Source: a virus. Taken from it: a stretch of DNA of 51,158 bases. A program made the position numbers and the translations under genes. Shown here piece after piece: positions 5,761 through 51,158 of this stretch. Position 1 is the first letter of the stretch; each line of letters opens with the position of its first letter. Under the pieces are notes generated by a model. The model was not told where the DNA came from, ran no database searches, and saw only the letters and a program-made list of their open reading frames with translations. The stretch lies in the IMG/VR virus record IMGVR_UViG_3300019132_000034, positions 1-51,158 of that record; one strand, written 5' to 3'.

Positions 5761-5798
5761 AAGAGAAGAGCAATTCGTTTAAAAGGGGGAAATATTGA

Positions 5799-8182: not shown

Positions 8183-8202
8183 CACGAAAGTAGGTGGCGT
8201 AG

Positions 8203-9055: not shown

Positions 9056-9597
9056 ATCTTTCAAAAGAATGGAATCCTGTACCGAAGCCGGTAAAAGAAC
9101 GAAAGGAAAAGCTACGCCCGAAGATACATGAGAAGCGTCCGAAGAAGAATCGAAAGAAGATAGAAGTATACAAGGGTCGTGTGATCCCGAAAGCAAAAGA
9201 CCGTACGAAAATCAGCAAGACCAACTACCACCGTATGATCGAGGAATTCGGATACCGCTGCTTGATTTGCGGAAAGACACCAATTGAAGCTCACCACATT
9301 GTTTTTCGTAGTCAGCTAGGTTCGGGGAATTGGAGAAACCTAGCACCTCTTTGTCAAATGCATCATAGAAAAGCCCACCAGGATAGAAACTTTGCTGAAT
9401 ACTTACGCCAGGAGCGAGCAGAACGATTTGGACCGCACTTTTGGAAAGACAAATATAGGCTCTTTAAAGAGGGATTGATTCTGAATACAACGGATTCGTC
9501 CTTTGAACAATTCATGAAGGAGGAAGAAAAACGTGGATTGGCTCGAATGGCAGAAAAAAGTGATAATCGAGGAATATGTGGAGGGGGAGAAAAATGA
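9052..9597 (+). CDS. HNH endonuclease with a Lys-rich N-terminus
   Basis: CLICGK...EAHHIVFRS...NLAPLCQMHHRKAH. Confidence 0.7.
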   Translation: MNLSKEWNPVPKPVKERKEKLRPKIHEKRPKKNRKKIEVYKGRVIPKAKDRTKISKTNYHRMIEEFGYRCLICGKTPIEAHHIVFRSQLGSGNWRNLAPLCQMHHRKAHQDRNFAEYLRQERAERFGPHFWKDKYRLFKEGLILNTTDSSFEQFMKEEEKRGLARMAEKSDNRGICGGGEK

Positions 9598-9713
9598 AAC
9601 GGTACGTAGTGGAGAAAACAACCAAAACGCCGGATGGAGAAAATCTAAAGGTCGTTGAGGTGCTGGATAGCAAACCAAAGAATTTTTCTTATATCGTGTT
9701 TATTGGAAAATAG
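9594..9713 (+). CDS. Hypothetical 39-aa protein
   Basis: ATGA overlap with the HNH gene. RBS GGGGGAGA. Confidence 0.35.
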   Translation: MKRYVVEKTTKTPDGENLKVVEVLDSKPKNFSYIVFIGK

Positions 9714-10511: not shown

Positions 10512-10690
10512 ACAAAGAGTATTGGCGTGGATTCCGTGACGGTCAGGAGCATGAGCGAAAGAAGGCGGCGCAGGTGTTGGCTTGCTACATAGAGTCATTG
10601 CGAGGCGTGAAGGGAATCGGCCCTGCGCTGTATCAAAGGATTGTGGAACATATCAATAAGGTGGATGTGAGAAAGGGGAAGGAAAAGTGA
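10508..10690 (+). CDS. Hypothetical protein
   Basis: In frame with track ORF 10466-10690. ATG 10508 is coupled to the upstream stop. Confidence 0.5.
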   Translation: MNKEYWRGFRDGQEHERKKAAQVLACYIESLRGVKGIGPALYQRIVEHINKVDVRKGKEK

Positions 10691-11013
10691 ATTTTAACGA
10701 ATATCAACAAGCAACTGATCGAACTTCTCCAGCATTTGATGATGAGATCGGTTGTATGGTCAATTTTGCAATGGGATTGAGTGGAGAAGCTGGGGAAATA
10801 ACTGATTACGTGAAAAAAGTGGTGTTTCAAGGTCATTCACTAGAAAAAGAAAGAATTGCTGAAGAACTAGGTGACTTACTTTGGTATGTTGCAAGAATGT
10901 CAAGTTTATTGGGATATGACTTAAGCAAAATCGCGCAAATGAACATTAAAAAACTCGAAAAGCGCTATCCAGAAGGTTTTAGTGTAGAAGCGAGCGTGAA
11001 CCGAAGCGAATGA
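10687..11013 (+). CDS. MazG-type nucleoside triphosphate pyrophosphohydrolase
   Basis: GLSGEAGEITDYVKK and EELGDLLWYV motifs. Length 108 aa. Confidence 0.8.
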   Translation: MNFNEYQQATDRTSPAFDDEIGCMVNFAMGLSGEAGEITDYVKKVVFQGHSLEKERIAEELGDLLWYVARMSSLLGYDLSKIAQMNIKKLEKRYPEGFSVEASVNRSE

Positions 11014-11966
11014 AAAACCACATCATCTTCTTTAGCGGAGGAAAATCGAGTTTTTCAGTGGCGGATTTTGTGAAAACGAATTATCCAAACGACAATATCG
11101 TTTTGTATTTCACCGATACGCTCTGGGAAGATGAGGATTTATATCGGTTCATTCATGAAGCGTCAGACAAACTCCAATTACCACTATTAACGCATAGTAT
11201 GGGCATCAATCCAATACAGTTAATGTTCCAGCAAAAAGTTTTGTTCAACAGTCGAATAGGGAACTGCTCCAAGATACTGAAAATGAAAGTGGCATCGGAT
11301 TTTCTAAAGAAAGGGAAAAAGCCAAAGATTGAAAAATGGTATAACAGGCAACATCTCAAGCAGGAAGATTTTATTTCACACGCAACTTTATACTTTGGAA
11401 TCAGCTTTGACGAAATGCATAGACAAGACGCCATCGTGAGGAATTGGCAACCATTTAGAGTAGAAATGCCGCTGATTGATAACATAGTAGATAATAACGA
11501 GATTTTACGGAAATACAACATCAGACAACCGAGACTATACGATTTAGGATTCTCTCATAACAACTGCAAAGGACGTTGCGTAAAAGCAGGACAAGGGCAT
11601 TTCCGTAATTTAAAGGAGAAAATGCCGCATGTGTTTCAAAAACTCATGGAACAAGAGCATCACATGAAAGTATATGTGTCCAGCTATCACTACATTAAGA
11701 GTTTGGATTTAGACGATGAGGTAAAAGAAATTTACCTATACGAACTAGATAAAGCCTATGAGGATTACTTCAATGGAAAAGCAGAAAAACCAAACCCATA
11801 CGTTCCTCCTAACTTGCATTTGAAACAATACAGCTTCATGAAAAAGAGTGGGAACGGAGAGGTAAGGCCTTATCCAATACGAGATTTACATTACGATGTA
11901 GAACGTGAGGGCACACAAATTGATCTGTTTGATATTGGCGGTTGTGGTTGTTTTGTAGAGTTTTAG
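11010..11966 (+). CDS. PP-loop ATPase of the PAPS-reductase-like family
   Basis: N-terminal IIFFSGGKSS PP-loop and a C-terminal Cys cluster (GGCGCF). Length 318 aa. Confidence 0.6.
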   Translation: MKNHIIFFSGGKSSFSVADFVKTNYPNDNIVLYFTDTLWEDEDLYRFIHEASDKLQLPLLTHSMGINPIQLMFQQKVLFNSRIGNCSKILKMKVASDFLKKGKKPKIEKWYNRQHLKQEDFISHATLYFGISFDEMHRQDAIVRNWQPFRVEMPLIDNIVDNNEILRKYNIRQPRLYDLGFSHNNCKGRCVKAGQGHFRNLKEKMPHVFQKLMEQEHHMKVYVSSYHYIKSLDLDDEVKEIYLYELDKAYEDYFNGKAEKPNPYVPPNLHLKQYSFMKKSGNGEVRPYPIRDLHYDVEREGTQIDLFDIGGCGCFVEF

Positions 11967-14965: not shown

Positions 14966-15268
14966 ATAAAAAATCTAAGGTACACATTCTTTAAAATGAA
15001 ATAGGTAATTTTCTCTTTTTTCTCAATCAAAATGGCCGTAAAATATGAAGTATCTAATTCATTTTTACATACCTGTTAAATTTAGTAATACTAACGGATT
15101 CAGTGGATTACCCAATAATACGAAATATGGGTATGGGTAATTAGAGAAAAATCTAAATAAACATTAGTTCCTAGTAGTTTAGTGAACCATTAAATAGTTA
15201 GTTGTATTACCATTCTGTGAGTATGTAGAGTGAAGTTTGGCGGGGGGAACTTTGGAAGGGGAGTGGCT

Positions 15269-16108
15269 ATGACCTTTAATCATAGAATAGTTCCGGGACA
15301 AATACTAGAGAATCATGAAATTGTTTCTATTTTTAAATGTGCTCCTCGGGGTGGGATGCGTCGGTCATTAAGGACTAATTCTCTTGTAATAGTATCGGAC
15401 CATACCGAATCTTTATACGAAGATCGCTGGGAAGATGATGTGTTTCATTACACTGGAATGGGAAGGACAGGAGACCAAAAGTTAGATTCCGGACAAAATA
15501 AGACATTAGCAGAGTCACGTGCCAATGGGGTAGACATTTATCTTTTTGAAGTGTTTCGGGAAAAAGAATATGTTTTCATAGGACAGGTTGAGTTGGCTGG
15601 TCAGCCATATCAAGAGGAGCAGTTGGATATAGAAAATAATTTAAGATTAGTTTGGGTTTTTCCATTAAGATTAAGAGGCAACACCAAACCATTTGAACTT
15701 CCCCAAGAGTGGATTGAAACAAAAAATAAATCCAGGGAGAAAAAGGCAAAGAAGTTGTCAGATGGGGAGTTAAAGGTAAGAGCAAGGCATACCAGCAAGA
15801 AAGCAGTTAAACGTGCGACTAGTAAGATCTCATATGAGCGAAATCCTTATGTCAGCGAGTATGCAAAAAGATGGGCAAACGGTATATGCCAACTTTGTGG
15901 TGAGGAAGCGCCATTTCGAGATAAAAATGGGACCCCGTATTTAGAGTCCCACCACATTGAATGGTTAGCGCGCGGTGGAGATGATACAATTGAGAATACA
16001 ATTGCCCTTTGTCCAAACTGTCATAAGAAGATGCATATACTCGATCGAAAAAGCGATGTAGAAAAGCTAAAAAATCGTGTTAGAGAGCATCTTCTGTCCT
16101 TAATGTAA
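15269..16108 (+). CDS. SRA/YDG-like reader domain fused to an HNH nuclease (putative type IV modification-dependent restriction enzyme)
   Basis: N-terminal SLVIVSDH..LYEDRWEDDVFHYTGMGRTGDQ...QNKTLAES resembles the SRA YEDD..YTG.GG pattern. C-terminal HNH is CQLCG...ESHHIEW...NTIALCPNCHKKMH. The ATG at 15269 has RBS GGAAGGGGA. Confidence 0.6.
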   Translation: MTFNHRIVPGQILENHEIVSIFKCAPRGGMRRSLRTNSLVIVSDHTESLYEDRWEDDVFHYTGMGRTGDQKLDSGQNKTLAESRANGVDIYLFEVFREKEYVFIGQVELAGQPYQEEQLDIENNLRLVWVFPLRLRGNTKPFELPQEWIETKNKSREKKAKKLSDGELKVRARHTSKKAVKRATSKISYERNPYVSEYAKRWANGICQLCGEEAPFRDKNGTPYLESHHIEWLARGGDDTIENTIALCPNCHKKMHILDRKSDVEKLKNRVREHLLSLM

Positions 16109-16136
16109 ATGTTCGTAATTAGGTGGTCGATCAATA

Positions 16137-16466
16137 ATGAAAGAATTGATTCAGAAAGTTGTCATGTTTCGAGATAAACGAAACTGGAAACAATTTCACA
16201 ATGCTAAAGATCTTGCAATATCTTTATCTATTGAGGCAAGTGAGCTTCTTGAAAATTTTCAGTGGAAGACAAGCGAGGAAGCTGTTAAGGAAAACTTAGA
16301 AGATATTAAAGATGAGGTTGCTGATGTTGTTATTTATGCAATGTTGCTTTCGAATGAATTAGATTTTAACTTAGAAGAAGTTATTGAGCAGAAAATAAAG
16401 AAAAATGAAGAAAAGTATCCGATTGAAAAGGCATACGGAAGTAATAAAAAGTACAACGAATTATAG
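16137..16466 (+). CDS. MazG-like all-alpha NTP pyrophosphatase (dCTPase/DCTPP1-like)
   Basis: EASELLENFQW and EVADVVIYAMLL metal-binding motifs. Length 109 aa. Confidence 0.7.
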   Translation: MKELIQKVVMFRDKRNWKQFHNAKDLAISLSIEASELLENFQWKTSEEAVKENLEDIKDEVADVVIYAMLLSNELDFNLEEVIEQKIKKNEEKYPIEKAYGSNKKYNEL

Positions 16467-16519
16467 GAATATGAGGGATTTACCTATATTTCGTTTTTCT
16501 AAGGACGGGTGATATTAGG

Positions 16520-17527
16520 ATGTTGTACTACTTTACTGCTAGCGACGATGATGCACAGAAACATTTCTATGATACTATTGAACAGCCGTGTAACATTGGA
16601 AAGTATATCTCTATGCTTGACTCTGCTACTGTAGATATTTTAAAGCAGAACAGTAAAGATAAATATGTACATATGTGGGGGGCAACACCAGGAAAATCTA
16701 ACCGAGATCGGTGGGATAAATTAAAATCTGGAGATAAAATATTGGCTTACTCTAAGGGAGTATTTCTGTATTACGGAACAATTTTCGCTAAAACACAAAA
16801 CCAGAGAGTTGCTGAGTTAATTTGGGGGACCAATAAAGAAGGGGAGACTTGGGAGTATATCTACTTTATTAAAGATCTCAGGAAGGTAGAAATTCCTGTA
16901 GAAAAATTTAACGCATTTTTTGATTATAAAATGAACTTTACCCCTCAAGGCTTTTCGAATATTGAAAAGAAAAGGTTTACTTTGAGATATGAAAAATACG
17001 GATCAATTGACAAAATAATTGAAGTTCTTGAAAGTCAATTTATTATCTCTGAAGAAGAAATAGAAGAGGATAATTATCAAATAAGTATTCAGTCTTCTTC
17101 ATTGAATAAGGTTAAGATTGAGGGGGGGATTAAACCTGAAAAACGTCCGAAACCAAGGAAAGAAAAGGGAAAGCAGGTATGGCCAAGGGATCCGAAAAAA
17201 GCTCAACAAGCGTTGAAGAGAGCTGAGTTTAAATGTGAGATTGATGAATCACATATAACGTTCATGAGTGAGGCAAGTAATGTCCCTTATATGGAAGCAC
17301 ATCATTTAATACCACTGAAAATGCAACATGAGTTTGAACAAAGCTTAGATGTGATCGGTAATATTGTTAGTTTATGTCCAAACTGTCATCGAATGATTCA
17401 CCATGCGAAACCTAGGGAAAAGAAGAAGTTATTAGAACAATTGTATCAGAAACGAAAATGTGAGTTAGAACAAAGTAGTTTAAATATTGATCTTGAATAT
17501 TTGTTGAGTGTATACGCAATAAAATAG
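16520..17527 (+). CDS. HNH nuclease with an N-terminal PUA/EVE-like putative reader domain
   Basis: C-terminal MEAHHLIPL...NIVSLCPNCHRMIHH. The N-terminal 150 aa (WGATPGKSN..W..LKSGDKILAY...WEYIYFI) is assigned only tentatively. Confidence 0.55.
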   Translation: MLYYFTASDDDAQKHFYDTIEQPCNIGKYISMLDSATVDILKQNSKDKYVHMWGATPGKSNRDRWDKLKSGDKILAYSKGVFLYYGTIFAKTQNQRVAELIWGTNKEGETWEYIYFIKDLRKVEIPVEKFNAFFDYKMNFTPQGFSNIEKKRFTLRYEKYGSIDKIIEVLESQFIISEEEIEEDNYQISIQSSSLNKVKIEGGIKPEKRPKPRKEKGKQVWPRDPKKAQQALKRAEFKCEIDESHITFMSEASNVPYMEAHHLIPLKMQHEFEQSLDVIGNIVSLCPNCHRMIHHAKPREKKKLLEQLYQKRKCELEQSSLNIDLEYLLSVYAIK

Positions 17528-18194: not shown

Positions 18195-18659
18195 ATGCCA
18201 ACGGTCTTCGAGGTCGCAAGATACTTTTTAAGTAAAAGCGTCCCAAATACTCCGTGGGCAATTACCCACCTAAAATTACAAAAATTAGCTTATTATGCAC
18301 AAGGTTGGTATCTAGCTTTTACTGGAAATGTTCTATTTAATGAAAGACTAGAGGCATGGGTTCATGGGCCTGTTAGTCCTGATCTTTTTCATAAATATAG
18401 GAGATTCGGACACAATGAAATACCACAAGAAGATTTCCCAGATAGTAGGTCCATTTTTACAAAAAAACAACTAGAGGTGCTCGATGCCGTATGGGAAGCA
18501 TATGGGGAATACAGTGGAAAGTTTTTAGAAGAATTAACCCACCAAGAACTTCCTTGGCTTGAAGCAAGATCAAATCTTGATTCCAATGATTATTCAAATG
18601 AAGTTATTTTGGTTGATACAATACGTTCATATTTTAGAAACCAGCTAGGAGACGAATAA
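18195..18659 (+). CDS. DUF4065 / Panacea-domain (GepA/SocA-like) antitoxin-like protein
   Basis: THLKLQKLAYYAQGWYLAF.G..LF.E..EAWVHGPV hallmark. Confidence 0.75.
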   Translation: MPTVFEVARYFLSKSVPNTPWAITHLKLQKLAYYAQGWYLAFTGNVLFNERLEAWVHGPVSPDLFHKYRRFGHNEIPQEDFPDSRSIFTKKQLEVLDAVWEAYGEYSGKFLEELTHQELPWLEARSNLDSNDYSNEVILVDTIRSYFRNQLGDE

Positions 18660-18679
18660 CCTTTTTCGTCTCTTAATTT

Positions 18680-20569
18680 GTGTTAAATGGAGGGAAAGCA
18701 TTGTATTTGGAAAGGGTAAGAGAGATTATCAGATGGGTTATTATTGTGCTCAAAAACCTACTAATTTTTTGTTTTAGACTCATTTTTTCTATTAGTCAAT
18801 TGTACGGACTCTTAGTCAGAAGAACGTTTGTTTTATTGATACTTTACGCAATTATTTATTATTTATTATTTTACAGGTTTTCTATTGCACAGTTTCAGGC
18901 AGATATTAATCAAGAAAATGAAATGTTTTTAGCAAAAATATTTAAGTATGTGCATATTTTTCAAGCGAATGATGAAGTAGTGATGCAAATTATCTCTTCC
19001 GGAACAAAGTTTTTAAGTGTTGTATTCTCTGTAATATTGACACTATTTATTTTTTCGCATAGGGAACAAAGAGCAATCGCACCTTCGTCAACTTACCGGT
19101 TTTATAAAAACTATATTTTTTTATTTTTTCTTTCATTATTAATGATAACTATGCCTTACGGGTTTCACTTATCACTTATCTATAAGTCTAGTTTACATAC
19201 ACAATATTCGGAATTGGGTATTACTATTACATACTTTGGACGATTTGTTACATGGATTATTCTCTTCTTATTTTCCATTGTGCTTATTGGATATACAATT
19301 GTTTCTTTATTTCGAACTATTAACATTAATTGGTTATTACCTGTAACTATTCAACAAGTAAGATCCACATTAATAAACCTGGAGGTTGTGTTGGATAACA
19401 GGTGGTTTAGGAAAACAAGAATAAATGAATACAATGAATTGAATTTTAATATTGAAAGTGTTTATCAAATGCTTGAATATGCTGCTGAAAATAATATGAG
19501 CAAAGACTATTATGATAATATAGAAAAACTACGAGAAACGTTCTCTATTCTAAAAAAGGAACATTTTTATTATAAATCATCATCAGTCTACGCAAGTTTT
19601 TATAATAGGGACCAAGAAGAGTTTAGATCTTTTCATAGGTCTGTCTTAAAAAATACCTTATCATTAGCTACTGCTCTATATAAAAATAATAAGTTTAACA
19701 AAGGACAGAAAGCATTGGACCTATTATTTTCTCTATACTCAGATAAAATTCCTCCCGTTTTGAGGCATGACTATATTGCGAGTATTTATGAGTTAATACA
19801 ATTAACTGATTTAAAAAATGGGGCAAAAGTTCGTGCAATTTTAAACGGTTTGGAAACAATGAAGACGGAATATACACTCATTTTGTATCAAGCTCTAATA
19901 CTTCGAATAATTAGTGAGAACAACATACAATTACTAACGTCAGTTGTTTACTCAATGAAAAAAAATATAGATAGGAATATAAAGCCTAATAACGGTGGAA
20001 TACCACGTATTGAGTTAATTATTAATAAAGCTTTAAAAAGAAAATATAAGCTGTTGAATATAGGGATACTTTTACAGTGTATGGTGAAAAGTATTGAGTT
20101 GTCTCATTACGCTTGTACAGGCTTTTTAATAAAATTTCTTGTTACAAACTTCAGTGGAAAATTGGTGAAGGAAGCTTTTAATGCTTTGTTGAATAATGGA
20201 ATGGTTTTTGGTACTATCTATCCCAACATGGGGGAGAACGTGCATTTAGACATTGATTACTACTTCAACGAAAAAACATACGATTATTGCTTAAAGAAAT
20301 TGTGTATTCTATTGTACGGGCAACAAAGGTATGCAGTAAGAAACGGTCTATCTTTTATTGAAGAATTTCATAAAGAGTCGTATGAATACATTGATATAGG
20401 ATCGGCATTCGTAGAGTGTGACTACAAAGAATATATATTTACTAAGGTATTGTCAGCAGGGAAAAAGTATGGATTTCTTTATCTAAAGGATAAGGAATTC
20501 TTAAGAGATCTTGCTAAGGATTTTGGTGTTCAAACATTATTGATGGAGGAGTTGCTTCCTGACCTTTAA
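18680..20569 (+). CDS. Large polytopic membrane protein of unknown function (candidate toxin/effector partner of the Panacea protein)
   Basis: About 6 hydrophobic helices in the first ~215 aa, then an alpha-helical soluble region of about 400 aa. The gene is AT-rich. The likely true start is TTG 18701, after GGAGGG. Confidence 0.6.
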   Translation: MLNGGKALYLERVREIIRWVIIVLKNLLIFCFRLIFSISQLYGLLVRRTFVLLILYAIIYYLLFYRFSIAQFQADINQENEMFLAKIFKYVHIFQANDEVVMQIISSGTKFLSVVFSVILTLFIFSHREQRAIAPSSTYRFYKNYIFLFFLSLLMITMPYGFHLSLIYKSSLHTQYSELGITITYFGRFVTWIILFLFSIVLIGYTIVSLFRTININWLLPVTIQQVRSTLINLEVVLDNRWFRKTRINEYNELNFNIESVYQMLEYAAENNMSKDYYDNIEKLRETFSILKKEHFYYKSSSVYASFYNRDQEEFRSFHRSVLKNTLSLATALYKNNKFNKGQKALDLLFSLYSDKIPPVLRHDYIASIYELIQLTDLKNGAKVRAILNGLETMKTEYTLILYQALILRIISENNIQLLTSVVYSMKKNIDRNIKPNNGGIPRIELIINKALKRKYKLLNIGILLQCMVKSIELSHYACTGFLIKFLVTNFSGKLVKEAFNALLNNGMVFGTIYPNMGENVHLDIDYYFNEKTYDYCLKKLCILLYGQQRYAVRNGLSFIEEFHKESYEYIDIGSAFVECDYKEYIFTKVLSAGKKYGFLYLKDKEFLRDLAKDFGVQTLLMEELLPDL

Positions 20570-20632
20570 GGGGGATAAGAAGATTGTTCCCCATTGGAAT
20601 CCATTCAGGAATTCCATTTTAATTAGGGATAG

Positions 20633-20670
20633 TGACAGAAAACTGAAGGAAAAATGACGGAAAGATGACA
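20633..20670. promoter_or_regulatory. Three phased TGAC(A/G) boxes upstream of RNA element B
   Basis: Boxes at 20633, 20655 and 20666, a spacing of 22 and 11 nt. Confidence 0.3.
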
Positions 20671-20722
20671 GATTATTTTGGTTTAGACGTGTTATGATGG
20701 TATCGTGGATCTTTTGTTGAAG

Positions 20723-20835
20723 TAGCTATTCTCAAAGCCTGTCACTAGAACTAGCGAGTCCGAATCTCGTTTGTGTGGAAAGCAGGCGGGAGCGAGTTCC
20801 GACAAGCGTCACCCGATCAGGTGGCGTTTTTATTT
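20723..20835 (+). ncRNA. Structured RNA-like element B (paralogue of 13790-13902), ending in an intrinsic terminator
   Basis: Same conserved blocks as copy A. The central stem CTCGTTTG/CAGGCGGG and the terminator stem CGTCACC/GGTGGCG differ in sequence from copy A but still pair. Confidence 0.5.
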
Positions 20836-20880
20836 TGGCGGTTTAAATATTATAATTAACTTGAGGGAGGGCGGAAAAGG

Positions 20881-21615
20881 ATGGAAAATTTTATTTCTCT
20901 ACTAGTTTTTACGTTACCAGGTTTATTAACTTATTTCTGGATCCAATTATTCGGTTTAACCCCAACCGTTAAACATCAAAGTACAGAGATGTTGGCAATT
21001 AGTGCTCTATTATGGATACCGGTTATGGTTACAGTATTATTCTTTTATCAATTATTGGCGTATGCTTCAAGCTTAGACATGTTCTATTTGGGAGTTGATA
21101 TACCAATTTTAAAAAAAGATTGGACCATGATAAATAAGTTAAGTGACATAGTTACTTTGCCCGACAATGTATGGTTTTTATTATATTTTGTAGCATCAAG
21201 TATAATAGTTAGTTTTTATGTAGCAAAATTTATATGTAAAAAGGGTTATAAAAAATTATTACATAAGGTTAACCAAATTCGTAAAGAAAATGGGTTAGCT
21301 CCATTATCTGGAAATACAACAGTTTGGAACGAAGCATTTTTGGGAAATGAAGGGCAATTAGTCGAGGTTTACAAAATTGATAAACCAGACGAAAAGGTGA
21401 TTGGTTGTATAAAAAAAGTGTCCAGAGCGTTCGAGCCCGAAAAAAATATTGTTCTTGAGGGCGTCGAGCACTGGACAGAAGTGATGAAACATTATCACGT
21501 TGAAATCGATGATATATTTATTGATACTAAAACAGGATTGGTAATTAAGATATATAATACAGATCAGGCACTAGAGGCGCAGAACTTATACAACAACAGT
21601 AAAGCTACTTCTTAG
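20881..21615 (+). CDS. Membrane protein of unknown function
   Basis: A 244-aa ORF with about 4 N-terminal hydrophobic helices. RBS GAGGGAGGG. Confidence 0.6.
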   Translation: MENFISLLVFTLPGLLTYFWIQLFGLTPTVKHQSTEMLAISALLWIPVMVTVLFFYQLLAYASSLDMFYLGVDIPILKKDWTMINKLSDIVTLPDNVWFLLYFVASSIIVSFYVAKFICKKGYKKLLHKVNQIRKENGLAPLSGNTTVWNEAFLGNEGQLVEVYKIDKPDEKVIGCIKKVSRAFEPEKNIVLEGVEHWTEVMKHYHVEIDDIFIDTKTGLVIKIYNTDQALEAQNLYNNSKATS

Positions 21616-40089: not shown

Positions 40090-42345
40090 ATGCCTTTTGA
40101 TTCAAACCAATTACCTGAATGGAATGCACCAGGAGTTGAACCACCACAAAGTAAAAAGGACGAAGGATGGGGTGTCACTGAAAAACCCCCGGCAGATTGG
40201 TTCAACTGGTTTTTTTATAGGACCTATAATGCGTTAAAGTCCTTGTTTAATCTAGCGCAACACAAAGAGGAAAAAGGTCAACCAAACGGATATGCCAGTT
40301 TAGATGGGAATGGAAAAATTCCTGAGACACAAATAAAGGATGCTACCGTATCACAAAAAGGAATTGTTCAATTGAACAATACTGTGTCGAGTACAAGTAC
40401 AACTCAAGTAGCAACCGCAAATGCGGTGAAAACAGCCTATGATCGAGCTGTAAATGCTGAAAATAATGCAAAAGCGGCATCGGCGCCTATTGATCATGTT
40501 GGTGCAGGCGGAAATGCTCACGCGGTAGCAACTACATCCCAAGCAGGGTTTATGAGTGCATCCGACAAAACCAAACTAGATGGTATTACGGCGGGTGCGG
40601 AAGTGAACCAAAACACATTCAGTAACGTAAAAGTGGGAACATCGACTATCGCTGCTGACAGTAAAACAGATACACTCGAATTAGTGGCGGGTTCAAATAT
40701 CACTTTAACCGCTGACACTATCAATGATAGGGTTACTATCGCGGCGAATGTGCCTGTTACAAGTGTCAACAGTAAAACCGGCGCGGTCACATTATCCGCA
40801 TCGGATGTAGGAGCGGAAACGCCGAGCGGCGCACAAGCAAAGGCTGACCAAGCGGAAATTAATGCCAAAAACGCAAGTTTACCAAGAACAGGTGGAAAAC
40901 TAACAGGAGATTTAGAAATTAATGGATGGAAAACAAAGAATATTAACGGAAGCACAGGAACAAGTGTTCAATGGATTAAAGTGGCTCGAATACAGAATAC
41001 CTCCGCTATTGACGGTAACGAATATGCGACTTTCACAGGCGTTCTAGTGGTTCAGCGAGATTATGGGAATACCGCTAACGAAACAATAGGGGAAGTTAAT
41101 TTTTCATTTGGAGTTAGAGGAGAAATTAAACCTGTGTTATTTGTCACAGGGGATGCCGCAAAATTAAGCACTATTCAAGGCTTTAAATTCCGAGTATATA
41201 GGGATGCTAGTGGATGGCATTATCTCTATTTCATGCGACCTAAGCACTCTCGATTCGCATCATTCCTATATCGTTCCGATGGATGTACGGAATATTGGAC
41301 ACAGGAGGACCCAACAACGATTAGTGGTCTCACGTTGGTATGGGATAGCGACAACGGAAGTGTCCAGGATGTATATGTAGGGAAAAACAAAGTATGGCAT
41401 GAAGGGAATGGTGGCGCAGGAAGTGGACTAGATGCCGACACCGTAGACGGTAAGCATTTTTCGGATATACAAGCTGATGCACAAGTAAAAGCCGACCAAG
41501 CGGAAGCAAATGCAAAAGCGGCATCGGCGCCTATTGATCATGTTGGTGCGGGCGGAAATGCTCACGCAGTAGCAACTCAATCTCAAGCAGGTTTCATGAG
41601 CGCATCCGACAAAACAAAATTAGATGGCATAGCGTCAGGTGCAGAAGTCAATCAAAATGCGTTTAGTAACGTCAAAGTAGGAACAACGACTATTGGCGCT
41701 AATAGCAAAACAGATACATTAGAACTTGCGGCGGGTTCAAATATTACTTTAACAGTTGATAGCGCGAATGACAGAGTAACTATAGCGGCGAATGTGCCTG
41801 TTACGAGCGTAAACAACAAAACCGGAGCGGTAGTGTTAAGTGCTAGTGATGTGGGTGCGGAAACACCGAGTGGAGCGCAAGCGAAAGCAAACCAAGCCGA
41901 GACAAACGCGAAAAACGCTGCTCATTTGAAAACGGCGAATAATATGTTGAGTGTTCCGAGTCAATCGCAGGTTATCGCTTCAAAAAGCGCAACGCAAACC
42001 GTATCGCATGGAATTTACACAAAAGTGACGCTAGACGTTGAACACGCAGATACACAAGGGGAATTTTCAAACAGTGCCTTTATCCCCAAAGAAAGCGGAA
42101 CATATTTAATCATTACGCACACAGTTTTACAATCTGCGCCGACAGGTGATGTATATCACGATATTTGGGAAAATGGCGTCCAATTAACGCATAACGGGGT
42201 AGGATACAACCAAAAAATAGGGATTAACACTCGATTACTGCAGCTAGTAGCAGGAAGAACCTATGAGTTTTATATACAAGTCTGGAACTCTAATAATGCT
42301 GCAACCATTTCAGCAGCGCAACTGTTCATATATCGTCTAGGGTAG
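40090..42345 (+). CDS. Tail fibre protein with an internal duplication
   Basis: A 751-aa ORF with repeated GFMSASDKTKLDG fibre-repeat modules and a distinct C-terminal domain. Confidence 0.75.
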   Translation: MPFDSNQLPEWNAPGVEPPQSKKDEGWGVTEKPPADWFNWFFYRTYNALKSLFNLAQHKEEKGQPNGYASLDGNGKIPETQIKDATVSQKGIVQLNNTVSSTSTTQVATANAVKTAYDRAVNAENNAKAASAPIDHVGAGGNAHAVATTSQAGFMSASDKTKLDGITAGAEVNQNTFSNVKVGTSTIAADSKTDTLELVAGSNITLTADTINDRVTIAANVPVTSVNSKTGAVTLSASDVGAETPSGAQAKADQAEINAKNASLPRTGGKLTGDLEINGWKTKNINGSTGTSVQWIKVARIQNTSAIDGNEYATFTGVLVVQRDYGNTANETIGEVNFSFGVRGEIKPVLFVTGDAAKLSTIQGFKFRVYRDASGWHYLYFMRPKHSRFASFLYRSDGCTEYWTQEDPTTISGLTLVWDSDNGSVQDVYVGKNKVWHEGNGGAGSGLDADTVDGKHFSDIQADAQVKADQAEANAKAASAPIDHVGAGGNAHAVATQSQAGFMSASDKTKLDGIASGAEVNQNAFSNVKVGTTTIGANSKTDTLELAAGSNITLTVDSANDRVTIAANVPVTSVNNKTGAVVLSASDVGAETPSGAQAKANQAETNAKNAAHLKTANNMLSVPSQSQVIASKSATQTVSHGIYTKVTLDVEHADTQGEFSNSAFIPKESGTYLIITHTVLQSAPTGDVYHDIWENGVQLTHNGVGYNQKIGINTRLLQLVAGRTYEFYIQVWNSNNAATISAAQLFIYRLG
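40471..40875 (+). repeat. Tail-fibre internal repeat, copy 1
   Basis: A highly similar segment of about 405 nt recurs 1044 nt downstream. Confidence 0.8.
41515..41919 (+). repeat. Tail-fibre internal repeat, copy 2
   Basis: Partner of 40471-40875. The encoded peptide is KAASAPIDHVGAGGNAHAVAT...VGAETPSGAQAKA. Confidence 0.8.
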
Positions 42346-43429: not shown

Positions 43430-43485
43430 GCTGCTTGGTTAAACCAAGCGGCTTTTACTTTGTAATGACGAAGGAGGTATATCAT

Positions 43486-44484
43486 ATGGGGTACTTATTT
43501 GAGAAACTTCCGCAACTTATAGATATGCGAGGAAAACTCCCAAAAAAAGGGCAGTATTCCATGCGAAACGGTGGAATCAAAGCGATTAGAACGAGGGTAT
43601 GGCATCATTCTCTAACAAAATTGAACTTAAAGGGCTCTAACGTAGAAGCATTTGCAAATTATCATGTAGGGACACATGGGTGGCCGGAAATTGGGTATAC
43701 CTTTGTGATTGATCCCAATAAAGTCGTAGACAATCGTGCTGCCATTTATTATTGCGTGGATATTGCTAAAAAATCCTATCATGTGGGAAATAGCAATAAC
43801 TTCTCGTTAGGTATTTGTGTGATTGGGGATTATCGATACGACCAACTATCTGAACCCGCTATGCGTTCGGTATCAGAATTACATGCCGCTCTTGTAGCCG
43901 ATGGAATTGGCCAAGAAGATAAATCCCATCATGAAATGCCGGGATATAGTTGGAAAGAATGTTGTGTTTATAACTACCGAAAAGCCATCCAATGGAAGGG
44001 GAACGTTACTCCATCTGCACCGACACCACTTCCGAACACCTATGTCATTCAGGAGGGGGATACATTCTGGAGTATTGCGAACAGAGATGGAGTTGGTGGG
44101 ATAACGGTAGAGGATTTGATTGCCGCTAATCCTGGAGTAGATCCTAGAAACCTTAAGGTCGGTCAGAGCATCAATCTAGGAAAGGCAAAACATGTGTTTA
44201 CCCGTAATCCGGAGGAACCGAAAAAGCCGCAGTCCTCCTATCGTTTCCCTTTACCGAGCGGGGTTTTACGAAAAGGAGACCGGGGGGATAAGGTTAAACA
44301 ACTTCAGAGAGCGCTCGATACTGTTCACTTCCGCCCAGGAACAATTGATGGAATATATGGTTCAAAGACTGAGGATGCGGTCAAACGATTCCAATCGGTA
44401 TATATACCGTATCAAGTAGATGGCATTTATGGACCGAAAACAGCGGAAAAGCTAAAAGCGGTGCTAAAATCAAAAGGTTATTAG
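43486..44484 (+). CDS. Endolysin: N-acetylmuramoyl-L-alanine amidase plus LysM and PG_binding_1 domains
   Basis: Amidase_2 motifs (WHHSLT...YHVG.HGWPEIGYTFVI...YHVGNSNNFSLGICV), LysM (YVIQEGDTFWSIA) and PG-binding repeats (DGIYGSKTEDAVKRFQ). RBS GAAGGAGG. Confidence 0.9.
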   Translation: MGYLFEKLPQLIDMRGKLPKKGQYSMRNGGIKAIRTRVWHHSLTKLNLKGSNVEAFANYHVGTHGWPEIGYTFVIDPNKVVDNRAAIYYCVDIAKKSYHVGNSNNFSLGICVIGDYRYDQLSEPAMRSVSELHAALVADGIGQEDKSHHEMPGYSWKECCVYNYRKAIQWKGNVTPSAPTPLPNTYVIQEGDTFWSIANRDGVGGITVEDLIAANPGVDPRNLKVGQSINLGKAKHVFTRNPEEPKKPQSSYRFPLPSGVLRKGDRGDKVKQLQRALDTVHFRPGTIDGIYGSKTEDAVKRFQSVYIPYQVDGIYGPKTAEKLKAVLKSKGY

Positions 44485-44989: not shown

Positions 44990-45238
44990 ATGCAATATCA
45001 TCTCCGCTCCCGTGAAGAGGTGGAGGACTTCATTAAAAATGAGGTCCTCACCACGTCTGAGGTTGTAGAAATGTTGGGAGTTACACGGCAGAGGGTAAGT
45101 CAACTGATCTCAAGTGGGAAATTGACTCCCGTGAAGAAACTTCGTGGTGACAGTCTGTTTTTACGTAGCGATATTTTGGAGAAGAAAAAAGAACTCGAGG
45201 TCCTGAGAAAGAAGTATCGACCGTATGACGAAGAATAG
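44990..45238 (+). CDS. Small HTH DNA-binding protein (excisionase/MerR-like HTH_17)
   Basis: LTTSEVVEMLGVTRQRVSQLISSGKL, with RBS AAGGAGG. Confidence 0.65.
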   Translation: MQYHLRSREEVEDFIKNEVLTTSEVVEMLGVTRQRVSQLISSGKLTPVKKLRGDSLFLRSDILEKKKELEVLRKKYRPYDEE

Positions 45239-45245
45239 ATATTAA

Positions 45246-45276
45246 AATTCCTGGCAAATGCCAGGGAATTTTTATT
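45246..45276 (+). terminator. Intrinsic terminator between the HTH gene and cas12f
   Basis: AATTCCTGGC/GCCAGGGAATT stem and a T-run. Confidence 0.7.
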
Positions 45277-45343
45277 GTTAGAAGGAGTTTGAAAATAAAT
45301 ATTGAATAAAATAATTATCTTATAAAAGGAGAACGCTCTAGTT

Positions 45344-46615
45344 ATGAAACATACCAAAGTCATGCGGTACCAAATTGTTAAACCACTTGATACAGAATGG
45401 TCGACATTCGGAACGGTTCTTCGAGAAATACAGAAGGAAACCCGCGTTGCACTTAATAAAACGATTCAGTTATGTTGGGAATATCAAGGATTTAGTGCGG
45501 ACTATAAGTTTATACATGGGAAGTATCCTAGAAAAATGGATGTTCTAAGATACACAAGTATGCACGGCTATGCCTATAAGCGTTTGAAACCTGAGTTTAC
45601 CAAAATTGCGTCTGGCAATCTTGCACAAACTATAAAGAGAGCGGTAGACAAATGGAACAGCGATGTAAAAGAAATCTCGCGTGGGGAACGTTCTATACCA
45701 AGTTTCAAAAAAGATTGCCCAATCGATGTTGTGAAAAAGTCTATGAAACTAAAGAAATCCGGTGATGGTTATATCCTTAGCCTAAGCTTAATAAACAGAG
45801 AGTATACTAGTGAATTAGGGCGGAAAAATGGTGTATTTGATGTTTTTATAAGGGCTAATGATAAATCCCAACAAACAATTCTAGACCGAATATTAGAAGG
45901 AGAATACATCTTTACGGCGTCCCAAATTCTGAATCATAAAAACAAATGGTTTATTAATCTCACTTATCAATTTGAATCACAAGAAGTTACCTTGGATCCT
46001 AACAATGTGATGGGAGTAGATTTAGGGATTGTCTATCCGGTTTATATCGCATTCAATAATAGCCTACATCGATACCACATTAAAGGTGGAGAAATCGAGC
46101 GATTCAGACAACAGGTGGAAAAACGAAAAAAGGAATTATTGGAGCAAGGGAAATACTGTGGTGATGGACGAAAAGGACATGGGTATGCAACGAGGACCAA
46201 ATCTGTTGCATCCATTCGTGATAAAATTGCAAGGTTCCGTAATACCTGCAATCACAAGTATTCACGGTTCATCATCGACATGGCTATCAAACATAAATGT
46301 GGTACAATTCAAATGGAGGATTTAACAGGGATCAGTCAAGAAAGTACTTTTTTAAAGAACTGGCCATACTATGATCTTCAACAAAAAATTGAATATAAGG
46401 CAAAAGAAGCGGGGATACAAATCATTAAGGTAGATCCAAGCTATACTTCGCAGCGTTGTAGCAAGTGTGGTAATATTAATAGGAAAAATAGACAAGAGCA
46501 ATCCGTCTTTCTATGCGGGAAATGTGGTTTTGAAACCAATGCGGATTACAATGCATCGAGAAACATTGCAATACCTCGAATCGATCAAATCATTAAGGAA
46601 ACATTAGCAAAATAA
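45344..46615 (+). CDS. cas12f: Cas12f-like (type V-F, TnpB-derived) miniature RNA-guided nuclease
   Basis: RuvC-I (VMGVDLGIV), RuvC-II (GTIQMEDLTG), a CSKCG...CGKCG zinc ribbon and RuvC-III (ETNADYNASRNIA). The N-terminus YQIVKPLD..W..FGT.LR..Q.ETR.ALNK matches the AsCas12f1 sequence as I remember it. A CRISPR array lies 290 nt downstream. Confidence 0.8.
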   Translation: MKHTKVMRYQIVKPLDTEWSTFGTVLREIQKETRVALNKTIQLCWEYQGFSADYKFIHGKYPRKMDVLRYTSMHGYAYKRLKPEFTKIASGNLAQTIKRAVDKWNSDVKEISRGERSIPSFKKDCPIDVVKKSMKLKKSGDGYILSLSLINREYTSELGRKNGVFDVFIRANDKSQQTILDRILEGEYIFTASQILNHKNKWFINLTYQFESQEVTLDPNNVMGVDLGIVYPVYIAFNNSLHRYHIKGGEIERFRQQVEKRKKELLEQGKYCGDGRKGHGYATRTKSVASIRDKIARFRNTCNHKYSRFIIDMAIKHKCGTIQMEDLTGISQESTFLKNWPYYDLQQKIEYKAKEAGIQIIKVDPSYTSQRCSKCGNINRKNRQEQSVFLCGKCGFETNADYNASRNIAIPRIDQIIKETLAK

Positions 46616-46621
46616 AAAATA

Positions 46622-46806
46622 GCTCTGGGGCGATTCAGCGTCCTTAAGTCGAGAAGTGCCGTGTACAGCGTCTTGGTCTAGCGGTAACACTCGATAAGGT
46701 AGTCCTGTCTAACAGGCTGAAACCCTAGCCACAAAATCCGGCTAGGCATCATACATAGAAAGTCGTCGATCTACAATCGTGCAAAAACCTAGGGGGATCG
46801 ACGACA
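46622..46806 (+). ncRNA. Candidate tracrRNA / guide scaffold
   Basis: Stems CCTAGCC/GGCTAGG (46724-46746) and GTCGTCGATC/GATCGACGAC (46762-46805). The anti-repeat CATCATACATAG (46747-46758) pairs with repeat positions 14-25, with one G-U pair. Confidence 0.5.
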
Positions 46807-46905
46807 GGGATAATGTCAACGATAACAAGGTTTATGAGGATTTGTAGAAGGGAATTTTATATCTCCGGTACTTGATAAGGTGTTGCTACATCAACACTTT
46901 TTGGG

Positions 46906-47136
46906 GTTTCTGAGGAAACTATGTGTGATGTGAAGCGGGCGATTTTGACGAGTTTGATTATGTTTAAGTCGTTTCTGAGGAAACTATGTGTGATGTGAAG
47001 CAATCAGAGAAAAGGATGCTATTTGGTTTGATATTGTGTGTTTCTGAGGAAACTATGTGTGATGTGAAGATACGGTTTTCAGTGAGTTTATATCCAAGAA
47101 AAATAGGTTTCTAAGGAAACTATGTGTGATGTGAAG
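46906..47136 (+). CRISPR. CRISPR array: 4 copies of a 30-nt repeat (GTTTCTGAGGAAACTATGTGTGATGTGAAG) and 3 spacers (35, 39 and 37 nt)
   Basis: Repeats lie at 46906, 46971, 47040 and 47107. The first three are identical and the last has one G-to-A change. The spacers are unique. Confidence 0.9.
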
Positions 47137-47198
47137 ACTTCCCTATTGTGGTCATGGATACTAGATGCAAAAATAATAATGAGAATTTTTTTGAAATA

Positions 47199-47229
47199 AA
47201 AACCCCTTCTCACTTGAGAAAGGGGTTCT
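47199..47229 (-). terminator. Terminator of the TM2 gene; its hairpin also closes the CRISPR locus
   Basis: AACCCCTTCTC/GAGAAAGGGGTT stem with a T-run on the minus strand. Confidence 0.7.
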
Positions 47230-47234
47230 ATGTA

Positions 47235-47561
47235 TTATACAGCCGAATCATTTTTTTGTGCACTTCTCAACACTCTGATTTCCTCAATAATTTTCCGCTC
47301 AATTTCCTCATGGGTTTTACGAATCATGCTATTTAGTAAAAATAAGTCAATTAATGTCCAAATTCCCAAACAACCGAGCGTTAATGTCATAGCAATCGCT
47401 GTACCGATTTTTCCTAAATAATAGCGATGTCCGCCAATTCCACCTGTAAAAAACCACAATAGCCAGGTAACTCCCGTAGATTTTTTTCTTTTCTCCATTT
47501 CGGTTGACAAAATTTGCAATTCTTGCGTATTCAAATCGTGCTTAGATAAAATACTACTCAT
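47235..47561 (-). CDS. TM2-domain membrane protein
   Basis: WLLWFFTGGIGGHRYYLGK...GCLGIWTLIDLF is the TM2 signature. The start is at MSSILSK, after AAGGAG. Confidence 0.7.
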   Translation of the reverse strand: MSSILSKHDLNTQELQILSTEMEKRKKSTGVTWLLWFFTGGIGGHRYYLGKIGTAIAMTLTLGCLGIWTLIDLFLLNSMIRKTHEEIERKIIEEIRVLRSAQKNDSAV

Positions 47562-47690
47562 GATGAACACTCCTTGTATTTGGTAATCATGGATATATAT
47601 TACTATATTATCCTGTTAATTTCTACAAGTATTTTAGGGTATAAGTTTAGTCCGTTTTGTCTATCCTAACGATGAAAAGGAGTGGAGAAG

Positions 47691-48296
47691 ATGTTATTTG
47701 CATTAGAACTTGCTTTTGGAATCATTGTATTAATCGCTGCTATTCATTTCTGGATCACAAAAAGACAACATGAATATAAAACCATGCTGATTACCGATCA
47801 GATGGAACACAGCCTGGAAATAAAAATGACTTTGGCGATGGGTTTATATATGCGATTTTGTAAGGAAAAAGACGACAAACCGCCTAGATACTCCAAAATC
47901 TACATCAAGCAGAATCCGTTGCAATTTGAAACCTTTTGCGCAAAGGTCATGGAAGAAAAATACGGGGGAACTACGTGGGTTTCTCCTGCTTCCGGTGATT
48001 TTGGGGTGGACTTTGAACACCGCAGGGACGATGGGTTGTATTTAGGTCAGGTGAAATGCTACGAAGGTGATTTACCTTATGATCCAATAGCAAAATTACA
48101 TTCGAACATGGTGAAAAGTGGCGCAGTCGGTGGATATGTCATTACGACAGGAAGCTTTAGTGACAACGCTCGAAAATTTGCTGAAGGTTTAAATATCGAA
48201 CTCATTGACGGCGTGAAACTTGTGGAATATTGGATTGACGGACTAAAGGAAACGGAAAATGCGATTGCTGAGTGGAAAGAAGCCCCTACGATTTAG
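47691..48296 (+). CDS. Membrane-anchored Mrr-cat-type restriction endonuclease-domain protein
   Basis: An N-terminal TM helix, then FETFCAKVME..Y......SGDFGVDFE....GLYLGQVKCY...GYVITTGSFSDNARKFA...IELIDG. Confidence 0.65.
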   Translation: MLFALELAFGIIVLIAAIHFWITKRQHEYKTMLITDQMEHSLEIKMTLAMGLYMRFCKEKDDKPPRYSKIYIKQNPLQFETFCAKVMEEKYGGTTWVSPASGDFGVDFEHRRDDGLYLGQVKCYEGDLPYDPIAKLHSNMVKSGAVGGYVITTGSFSDNARKFAEGLNIELIDGVKLVEYWIDGLKETENAIAEWKEAPTI

Positions 48297-50575: not shown

Positions 50576-51080
50576 CGCCAATCGTATCCTTTATAATATG
50601 TCTCCTTACCTTAACTCTTTCCGCTTACAAGAAAACGTCTATTACCTTAATAAAAAAGGAAGGGAAATGATTAACAGCCATAAAGTAATGAATCGTAACA
50701 TGCAGGTGCATCACATTTTGATGAGAAACGAAGCTTATATTCACTTTGGATGCCCAAAGAAATGGGGAGTCGAGCAAGCGATACAAGATGAAAAAGGAAA
50801 TGTGTATTTAAGATCCGATGTGATTTTTGCCTTACAGGAAAAAGATAGAGAGGTCTATTATTTTTTAGAGATTGATTACATGCAGAAAATGGTGAACAAC
50901 AAAAAGAAGGTGGAGCGGTATGCACAAGTCAAAGCGATGAACCTTCTCCAACCTTCTTTGGGGTATTTTCCTCAACTCTTTTGGGTGACGACATCTGAAC
51001 ATCGGAAAAAGAAATTAATACAGATGTGTCGTGAACAACAGTTGCAACATATTGTCTATACCATCGATGAGATTCGTTAA
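50457..51080 (+). CDS. Replication-relaxation family protein
   Basis: N-terminal wHTH-like region ILYSLDRLGFLTRSQIQKLH...ARNANRILYNM. RBS AAGGAGG lies 9 nt upstream. The gene runs into the terminal repeat. Confidence 0.65.
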   Translation: MPMMLKNQERVEAILYSLDRLGFLTRSQIQKLHDLKSARNANRILYNMSPYLNSFRLQENVYYLNKKGREMINSHKVMNRNMQVHHILMRNEAYIHFGCPKKWGVEQAIQDEKGNVYLRSDVIFALQEKDREVYYFLEIDYMQKMVNNKKKVERYAQVKAMNLLQPSLGYFPQLFWVTTSEHRKKKLIQMCREQQLQHIVYTIDEIR

Positions 51081-51158
51081 AAACTAATAAGTTTCAGCAT
51101 ATCATATATTAGTAAAGGTTGTGTGACTAGAAGCATCTACCTCCACATGAGGATGAAG
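51060..51158. repeat. Terminal direct repeat, copy 2 (identical to 1-99)
   Basis: Direct comparison with nt 1-99. Confidence 0.95.

Follow-up and report, generated by a model that had tools for sequence, protein, structure and literature searches.

Results

The window analyzed here is the 51,158-nt stretch of viral DNA held in IMG/VR as record IMGVR_UViG_3300019132_000034, and it carries between positions 45344 and 47136 a cas12f1 gene (45344-46615), a predicted trans-activating CRISPR RNA (tracrRNA; 46622-46809) and a CRISPR array of four repeats and three spacers (46906-47136), all on the plus strand. By its sequence features this cassette is a genuine type V-F1 (formerly V-U3) CRISPR-Cas12f moron. 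The carrier is a temperate myovirus of 51 kb. An initial annotation, made from the sequence alone, had called the locus a miniature type V-F system, and the effector is indeed matched over its full length by the Cas12f and Cas12u3 profiles and has AsCas12f1 as its nearest structure.

The effector protein

The cas12f1 gene encodes 423 amino acids (aa) and was assigned with the AsCas12f1 structures, PADLOC and Pfam. A global alignment with AsCas12f1 (422 aa) runs end to end, with 56% identity over 418 aligned residues. In a phmmer search of all PDB chains, AsCas12f1 occupied the top positions (8J12, 8J3R, 8DZJ, 7WJU and 8J1J; E 8e-156 to 4e-154, residues 4-421), followed by OsCas12f1 (9NZQ, 3e-99), CnCas12f1 (9I8Y, 7e-79) and Un1Cas12f1 (7L48, 9e-40), and the TnpB-type "transposases" in the PDB reached E values of only ~1e-8. 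The resemblance to AsCas12f1 proposed in the initial annotation is thus borne out, the best PDB match having E=8e-156. The PADLOC models Cas12f (PDLC01699, 1.7e-150, residues 1-420) and Cas12u3 (1e-142) match at full length, and Pfam recognizes Cas12f1-like_TNB (9e-26). Among the NCBIfam models, the umbrella model guided_TnpB alone exceeds its cut-off; IS200_TnpB scores 72 bits (cut-off 425) and IS607_TnpB 49 bits (cut-off 350). The placement in Cas12f rests on these ranked profile and PDB scores, with AsCas12f1 as the reference sequence.

All the catalytic residues are kept. The RuvC residues D226, E325, R383 and D401 correspond to D225, E324, R383 and D401 of AsCas12f1, mutation of which abolishes activity (bioRxiv 10.1101/2023.07.03.547593), and the CCCC zinc finger is complete (C372, C375, C391 and C394), so that the open reading frame (ORF), RuvC triad and zinc ribbon reported earlier are all present. 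The PAM (protospacer adjacent motif) contacts H74, Y78 and K98 are retained from H72, Y76 and K96 of AsCas12f1 (bioRxiv 10.1101/2023.07.03.547593).

The CRISPR array

Between the cas12f stop codon and repeat 1 lie 290 nt, the last part of which (46810-46905) is an AT-rich leader that, in the alignment of orthologous loci, ends in a conserved T-run and GGG before repeat 1. Direct-repeat analysis resolves the array into four 30-nt repeats (GTTTCTGAGGAAACTATGTGTGATGTGAAG) at 46906-46935, 46971-47000, 47040-47069 and 47107-47136, the fourth of which is degenerate with one change (G7A), and three unique spacers of 35, 39 and 37 nt at 46936-46970, 47001-47039 and 47070-47106; the counts and coordinates agree with those first noted. 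Four near-identical 30-mers with a period of 65 to 69 nt are not a chance occurrence. The trailer after the last repeat (47137-47172) is a candidate fourth guide, since type V CRISPR RNAs (crRNAs) carry their guide 3' of the repeat (PMC8548392). The 30-nt repeat was not found in the JGI metagenomes, and in IMG/VR it occurs only in the known viral genome record; the repeat is confined to cas12f-linked arrays. A megablast search of the cassette against GenBank phages gave no match.

The predicted tracrRNA

The initial annotation had measured the gap between gene and array correctly and had missed what it contains. By our sequence analysis the 290-nt gap holds a predicted tracrRNA of ~180-185 nt (46622-46809), defined by alignment and covariation and composed of stem 1 (loop AUUCAG), a long stem 2, stems 3 and 4, an anti-repeat and a conserved 3' hairpin. 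When aligned with five orthologous loci, this interval is much better conserved than its flanks. Outside the window, 12 further loci have the element conserved beside cas12f. RNAalifold on the six loci gave 46 pairs, 11 of them with compensatory changes. A covariance model, R1, built from the same six-locus alignment with the window included, finds the element beside cas12f in loci outside its training set (L019 with two copies, L010 with three, L021, L011 and L005) and gives a weak match in Alicyclobacillus phage MMB025; the window element scores 205.7 bits, the window being one of the six source sequences of R1. In a 16-row alignment, which was fitted to the R1 model and so favors the structure, 93% of paired cells are complementary, compared with 33-41% with slid partners, and double changes occur in 35 of the 46 pairs. 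No Rfam family matches the element.

The anti-repeat GCAUCAUACAUAG (46746-46758; 13 nt) pairs with nt 14-26 of the repeat (CUAUGUGUGAUGU) and forms the best intergenic RNA:repeat duplex, at -23 kcal/mol; in the Laceyella and Nanhaiella loci the anti-repeat and its repeat partners are both altered. Covariation predicts a pseudoknot (R:AR-2) between UUCA in the loop of stem 1 (46634-46637) and the UGAA in which each repeat ends at its 3' side. Across loci, the 4-nt loop core and the repeat end covary as UUCA:UGAA, UUCG:CGAA, UUUC:GAAA, CUUG:CAAG and CCCA:UGGG. The AsCas12f1 tracrRNA, of 169 nt, occupies the same position in the gap between gene and array (PMC8548392) and its R:AR-2 duplex stacks on stem 1 (bioRxiv 10.1101/2023.07.03.547593), and for Cas12 tracrRNAs in general, pseudoknots formed with the 3' end of the repeat have been described (bioRxiv 10.1101/2025.01.20.633832).

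Two of the related loci have tracrRNA-like copies on both sides of cas12f, L019 at 9479-9644 and 11285-11450, and L010 at 3944-4098, 5660-5810 and 7295-7451. These multicopy loci resemble the "omega-RNA-like arrays" of part of the Cas12f1 branch.

The carrier phage

The ends of the window share an identical 99-nt overlap (1-99 = 51060-51158), and ENA contig k141_476855 (51,200 bp), an independent assembly, is the same circle in permuted form. The window is therefore a closed phage genome of 51,059 bp without host flanks and not a fragment of an integrated prophage. Its genes include terminase, portal, major head protein, tail sheath, tape measure, baseplate, tail fiber, holin and endolysin, the tailed-phage (myovirus) structural genes having PHROG matches of 1e-32 to 1e-118, together with ERF, SSB and a DnaC-like loader. 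The lysogeny genes are a 519-aa large serine integrase (Resolvase/Recombinase), a divergent HTH_3 CI/Cro-like repressor pair and a Bro-N/ANT antirepressor; together with sheath, portal and terminase they uphold the earlier description of a temperate phage. The closest GenBank phage is Aeribacillus phage AP45, with 78% identity over 12% of the structural region, and this points to a thermophilic Bacillaceae host.

Contigs from four samples encode a Cas12f protein that is 100% identical. The short contigs L016 (ERZ27286122) and L017 (JGI 3300018875), each with an identical cas12f, both end at window position 46759, just past the anti-repeat, and this shared stop may reflect population variants downstream or an assembly artifact.

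Position and flanks of the cassette

Gene order places the cassette, as the initial annotation had proposed, between the lysis genes (endolysin, 43435-44484) and a TM2/Mrr_cat/FtsK/Replic_Relax/integrase block of the lysogeny region. The phage-type large serine integrase of 519 aa is the only recombinase here and lies ~4 kb from cas12f. Matches to the Cas1, Cas2, Cas4 and Y1 transposase families were absent among the called genes and the scanned ORFs of at least 100 aa in the 51-kb genome (ORFs below 100 aa between 5.5 and 35 kb lay outside the scan), which within that scope bears out the claim that no cas1, cas2 or cas4 is present. No second copy of the cassette was found in the window.

Hairpin terminators had been proposed as the bounds of the locus on both sides, and this holds for the left one only. 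The intrinsic terminator at 45248-45267 (plus strand) has an 8-pair stem followed by a T-run, belongs to the upstream HTH_17 gene (44990-45238; Pfam match 7e-9) and insulates the cassette on its left; the HTH_17 gene has no counterpart in the related locus L007 and is therefore left out of the cassette. On the right, the hairpin at 47203-47224 qualifies as a terminator on the minus strand only, where it serves the convergent TM2 gene (47235-47570, minus strand); on the plus strand its tail has too few T residues for a terminator, but the hairpin may also stop transcription of the array. In front of cas12f, a consensus scan gave a weak promoter-like candidate, TTGAAA-18-AATTAT (9/12), at 45289-45318, and a putative ribosome-binding site, AAAGGAG, is read from the sequence at ~45327; both are on the plus strand.

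Immediately after the array, at 47235-48296, the TM2-domain membrane protein (minus strand) is followed by a membrane-anchored protein with an Mrr_cat restriction-endonuclease fold (PADLOC PDC-S02, 5.5e-9), and this slot, with lysis genes on one side and lysogeny genes on the other, has the look of a small defense island.

Related loci and their contexts

At E ≤1e-40 the effector family comprises 987 proteins, almost all named "transposase" in their sources. Among the loci compared, the most similar proteins are those of L007, in Thermaerobacillus caldiproteolyticus DSM 15730 (81% aa identity), where a prophage has a minor tail protein, a different endolysin and then the cassette, and of L004, IMG/VR UViG 2840006664_000003 (80%), a prophage with the order endolysin, cassette, tyrosine integrase. 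In three different prophages, those of the window phage, L004 and L007, the cassette is thus found behind the lysis genes. More distant homologs lie in an integrative element with a tyrosine integrase (L018, 76%), beside a 2,819-aa tape-measure protein on a 120-kb phage-like contig (L019, 64%), in a ParA-bearing element of Laceyella putida (L026, 64%), in a tRNA-integrated island with FtsK/Replic_Relax of Nanhaiella (L027, 63%) and at a locus flanked to either side, at a distance of a few kb at most, by chromosomal genes (L021, 62%). Two cultured phages carry homologs of the AsCas12f1 clade that are annotated as "transposase": Bacillus phage Mgbh1 (KU665491, 39257-40752; 44%) and the temperate Alicyclobacillus phage MMB025 (PV686781, 81738-83316; 39%), in which a CRISPR is annotated beside the gene. 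The publications on MMB025 and Mgbh1 do not mention the cas12f locus.

The cassette shared by L004 and L007 is 2.6 kb long and has no convincing terminal inverted repeats at its ends. At the right border of homology (~8150-8195), by-eye reading of the alignment picks out a conserved fragment that resembles a tRNA gene's 3' end (GGTCGCTGGTTCGAGCCCAGTCGGAATCA), which is probably a prophage attachment (att) core; ARAGORN found no tRNA gene at this border. Beyond it, L004 continues into the integrase and L007 into a host acetyltransferase-like gene.

Spacer targets and turnover

The arrays of the sister cassettes yielded 37 pooled spacers, with two informative matches. Spacer 4 of L004 matches Geobacillus phage vB_GthS_NIIg9.7 at 34 of 36 positions, with TTTA as the 5' flank, and its distal 32 nt are identical in PK3.5 and PK3.6, where the PAM and the first four bases differ; all three are siphoviruses of Geobacillus thermodenitrificans. 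Spacer 2 of L007 matches a MobQ/VirD4/ParM plasmid of Parageobacillus thermoglucosidasius perfectly over its first 20 nt, again with TTTA as the 5' flank. TTTA falls within the TTTR PAM measured for AsCas12f1 (PMC8795892; bioRxiv 10.1101/2023.07.03.547593), and V-F arrays have been reported to have a mixture of phage and plasmid targets (PMC10691335). No spacer of the window or of the family arrays matches the window itself.

What L007 spacer 2 matches on the plasmid is a palindromic motif (GATTAAATTTAATC...) that occurs several times near parM and the relaxase gene (L028, NZ_CP063416; 2818-2835, 2996-3038 and 5659-5677). A centromere- or iteron-like repeat is one possibility, and a single guide would then have several sites at which to cut.

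A 20-mer of window spacer 1 was found in JGI metagenomes on two contigs (one unrelated organism), with a 21-nt match in a response-regulator gene. This candidate was rejected as a chance match because it lacks a PAM (flank AAGT), comes from an unrelated organism and is close to chance expectation for a collection of that size.

Between the cassettes of L004 and L007, identity is 98.0% for cas12f, 99.7% for the tracrRNA plus leader and 98% for the trailer, whereas 0 of 5 spacers are in common between their arrays. Near-identical cassettes without common spacers indicate that the arrays turn over quickly despite having no adaptation genes.

Other features of the phage genome

A low-GC island at 18195-21615 (GC 0.31-0.35, versus about 0.40) encodes a SocA/Panacea-domain antitoxin (18195-18659), a 629-aa multipass membrane protein without a family match (18680-20569) and a DUF6338-like membrane protein (20881-21615), and is possibly a PanA-type toxin-antitoxin or abortive-infection moron. 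At 15230-17527, two HNH proteins that match PADLOC type IV methyl-directed restriction models (1.4e-20 and 4.4e-12) flank a MazG-like pyrophosphatase; a second MazG gene lies at 10687-11013 and a PAPS-reductase/SspD-like gene at 11010-11966. The HNH pair, the MazG genes and the SspD-like gene suggest DNA-modification or anti-modification functions in the early region. The 751-aa tail-fiber gene contains an internal duplication of ~410 nt (40465-40874 versus 41509-41918; 80% identity).

Discussion

The cassette has a full-length effector within the size range of ~400-550 aa, with RuvC, arginine and zinc-finger residues, an adjoining array, a predicted tracrRNA within ~150-190 nt, with anti-repeat and pseudoknot, and no Cas1, Cas2 or Cas4, all of which are features of V-F1 systems. 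For the 5' T-rich PAM of that subtype (TTTR/NTTR), the window spacers gave no protospacer; TTTA flanks both PAM-informative protospacers of the sister cassettes, which are 81% identical. We consider it probable, at roughly three chances in four, that the locus is a complete and active V-F1 cassette carried as a moron by a temperate myovirus and used in competition between genetic elements. Transcription would run from left to right off a promoter of the cassette itself and would most likely take place in the lysogen; the tracrRNA would pair with the repeats of the pre-crRNA, and a host RNase would trim the crRNAs. A Cas12f homodimer would then take up one tracrRNA:crRNA pair, with ~20 nt of the spacer as the guide, and scan DNA for a 5'-TTTR PAM, and a single active RuvC site would cut both DNA strands. 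The outcome would be to guard the prophage and its host from rival phages and conjugative plasmids, that is, superinfection exclusion and competition among mobile elements. The cassette would not acquire spacers itself; they could be renewed in trans by host Cas1-Cas2 or by recombination between related arrays.

Several points weigh against this interpretation. Expression in the lysogen, crRNA processing, the PAM and cleavage are all argued from homology. Neither the three window spacers nor the trailer could be matched within the phage itself, among GenBank phages and PLSDB plasmids (blastn, E up to 10) or in IMG/VR (exact 24-nt and PAM+17-nt patterns for each spacer). The proposed role is based on genomic context and the spacers of the sister cassettes, and would rest on two protospacers, both from those cassettes; the inter-phage warfare suggested in the initial annotation therefore gains indirect support from sister-cassette spacers that hit a phage and a plasmid, but none from the window's own spacers. 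One of the four PAM-contact residues is changed (S92 to A94), and Thr replaces R335. No promoter stands out above background, the count of promoter-like sites in the region not exceeding shuffled expectation.

Four other explanations bear on the same evidence. Phage ICP1 uses a type I-F system against phage-inducible chromosomal island-like elements (PLE), and the window cassette might likewise be a weapon of the lytic cycle, expressed during infection and directed at host DNA, defense islands, satellites or prophages. Other phages are known to aim CRISPR systems at genes of the host or at elements that it carries (PMC7162821; PMC11656645), this phage can exist outside the chromosome, as its circular assembly free of host sequence shows, and window spacers unmatched in phage and plasmid collections would be compatible with host targets. 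However, the cassette occupies a moron slot between flanking terminators, beside the lysogeny module and not within an early or late operon, and all the protospacers found for its sister cassettes belong to a siphovirus of virulent type or to a conjugative plasmid and none to a chromosome, in searches that did not extend to the host genome. We consider a lytic weapon unlikely. It is quite unlikely, in our judgment, that the locus is a decaying or orphan remnant that hitchhikes with the phage and no longer interferes. Only three spacers, without a known target, a mutated last repeat and the lack of Cas1, Cas2 and Cas4 could all be taken as signs of decay, but live arrays typically end in a degenerate repeat, which counts against a remnant. 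The catalytic residues are also all intact, the tracrRNA structure is fully kept at 205.7 bits (the window being among the six sources of R1), and the sister cassettes have replaced all of their spacers while their genes remain 98% identical; it is usual for Cas12f systems to have a short array and to lack adaptation genes (PMC10691335).

An RNA-guided repressor that binds and silences its target, in the manner of Cas12m, dCas14 or TldR, is a third alternative. The Cas12f/TnpB branch has given rise to derivatives of this kind more than once, in some cases within prophages (PMC10691335; bioRxiv 10.1101/2023.11.30.569447; PMC7162821). Those derivatives lost RuvC residues, whereas D226, E325, R383 and D401 are all present here, and we hold this alternative to be very improbable. 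The generic NCBIfam "guided_TnpB" subfamily, the source name "IS605 OrfB transposase" and the occurrence of the 2.6-kb cassette in different prophages would suit a TnpB element of the IS200/IS605 or IS607 type, with the repeats as copies of a transposon end or omega-RNA. This is the least credible of the four. The protein falls far under the IS200_TnpB and IS607_TnpB cut-offs, and PDB TnpB chains match at ~1e-8 compared with 1e-155 for AsCas12f1. The scaffold is a separate tracrRNA that starts after the stop codon and is not fused to the 3' end of the ORF, and the repeats alternate with unique spacers in a cassette present as a single copy in the window. The initial annotation had itself named a neighboring TnpA with transposon ends, or a repeat of insertion sequence (IS)-end or repetitive extragenic palindromic (REP) type, as grounds for doubting a CRISPR locus; neither a TnpA (Y1 or small serine) nor IS ends adjoin the gene in the window or in the loci of six relatives with Pfam-annotated neighbors, and the restriction of the 30-nt repeat to cas12f-linked arrays does not fit the second.

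How a complete V-F1 cassette of this kind would spread and acquire spacers is a matter on which we offer a more tentative proposal. It is possible, if doubtful, that cas12f, tracrRNA and array make up a self-contained 2.6-kb unit that passes from one temperate phage to another, unrelated one, settles next to their att sites and renews all of its spacers within 2% of gene change and without its own Cas1-Cas2, through the borrowed class 1 adaptation machinery of a co-resident host system or through an undescribed route. Borrowed class 1 adaptation or an undescribed acquisition route is suggested by the 30-nt repeat and the 35- to 39-nt spacers, which exceed the ~20-nt guide of Cas12f. If the proposal is true, these prophages would be a tractable model for spacer gain in adaptation-less V-F and V-U arrays.

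The closest known system is that of AsCas12f1 from Acidibacillus sulfuroxidans/Sulfoacidibacillus thermotolerans (8J12, 7WJU and 8DZJ). The two share effector length (423 versus 422 aa), the RuvC residues and CCCC zinc finger, the order of cas12f, long tracrRNA and array, and the lack of adaptation genes; the TTTA of the sister cassettes falls within the TTTR PAM of AsCas12f1, and its optimum of 45-55 °C suits thermophilic hosts (PMC8548392). An array downstream of the effector is usual for Cas12f (PMC10691335). They differ in that AsCas12f1 was described from a chromosomal locus, whereas the window system is carried by a temperate phage and is known from sequence alone; Ala and Thr replace S92 and R335, and the repeat and tracrRNA diverge with compensatory changes. 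CasPhi needs no tracrRNA. This and the other phage type V systems, namely Cas12j/CasPhi, Cas-lambda and the huge-phage V-F/V-U effectors Cas14j and Cas14k, resemble the window cassette in their compact single effector, short array, lack of Cas1, Cas2 and Cas4 and presumed use in inter-phage competition (PMC7162821; PMC12607003). They belong to other Cas12 clades, mostly in genomes >200 kb, in contrast to the canonical, tracrRNA-dependent Cas12f1 clade in the lysis-lysogeny moron slot of a 51-kb temperate myovirus. MMB025, which is temperate (PMC13141910), and Mgbh1 have full-length homologs accompanied by upstream mini-arrays in the former and two 37-nt repeats in the latter; unlike in the window, the array lies upstream of the gene, and the Mgbh1 gene stands within a replication module. 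TnpB and its omega-RNA in IS200/IS605 elements such as ISDra2 share the RuvC and zinc-ribbon fold, ancestry and a guide scaffold downstream of the gene, but the similarity is remote, and the window has no transposase or transposon ends and has a multi-spacer array and a separate tracrRNA.

The novelty implied by the initial annotation was overstated. In 2020, huge phages were reported to encode new subtypes of V-F and variants of V-U that nearly all lack Cas1, Cas2 and Cas4 (PMC7162821), and later surveys placed viral effectors near V-F1/V-U3 (PMC12607003). Systems of the Cas12f branch as a rule have no adaptation module (PMC10691335), V-F systems are enriched on plasmids (PMC11656645), and two cultured phages in GenBank carry homologs. 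Phage-borne V-F without adaptation genes is thus already published, and the window is a new example of a known system type. What the window adds is the presence of the canonical AsCas12f1 clade on a circularly closed temperate myovirus of ordinary size, a tracrRNA family defined with pseudoknot covariation, and a pair of cassettes that documents complete spacer turnover. The cultured phages MMB025 and Mgbh1 also prove to carry unrecognized Cas12f loci under the label "transposase".

As a close, thermophile-derived ortholog whose tracrRNA and repeat are defined and whose PAM is likely TTTR, the effector could be tried for editing. The L004/L007 pair makes spacer gain by adaptation-less type V arrays testable in culturable hosts, for example T. 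caldiproteolyticus DSM 15730. The AsCas12f1 clade, which provides the smallest Cas12 editors in use, is carried in nature by ordinary temperate phages, and by other mobile elements, in thermophilic and acidophilic Bacillota, and in those hosts Cas12f appears to police rival phages and plasmids.

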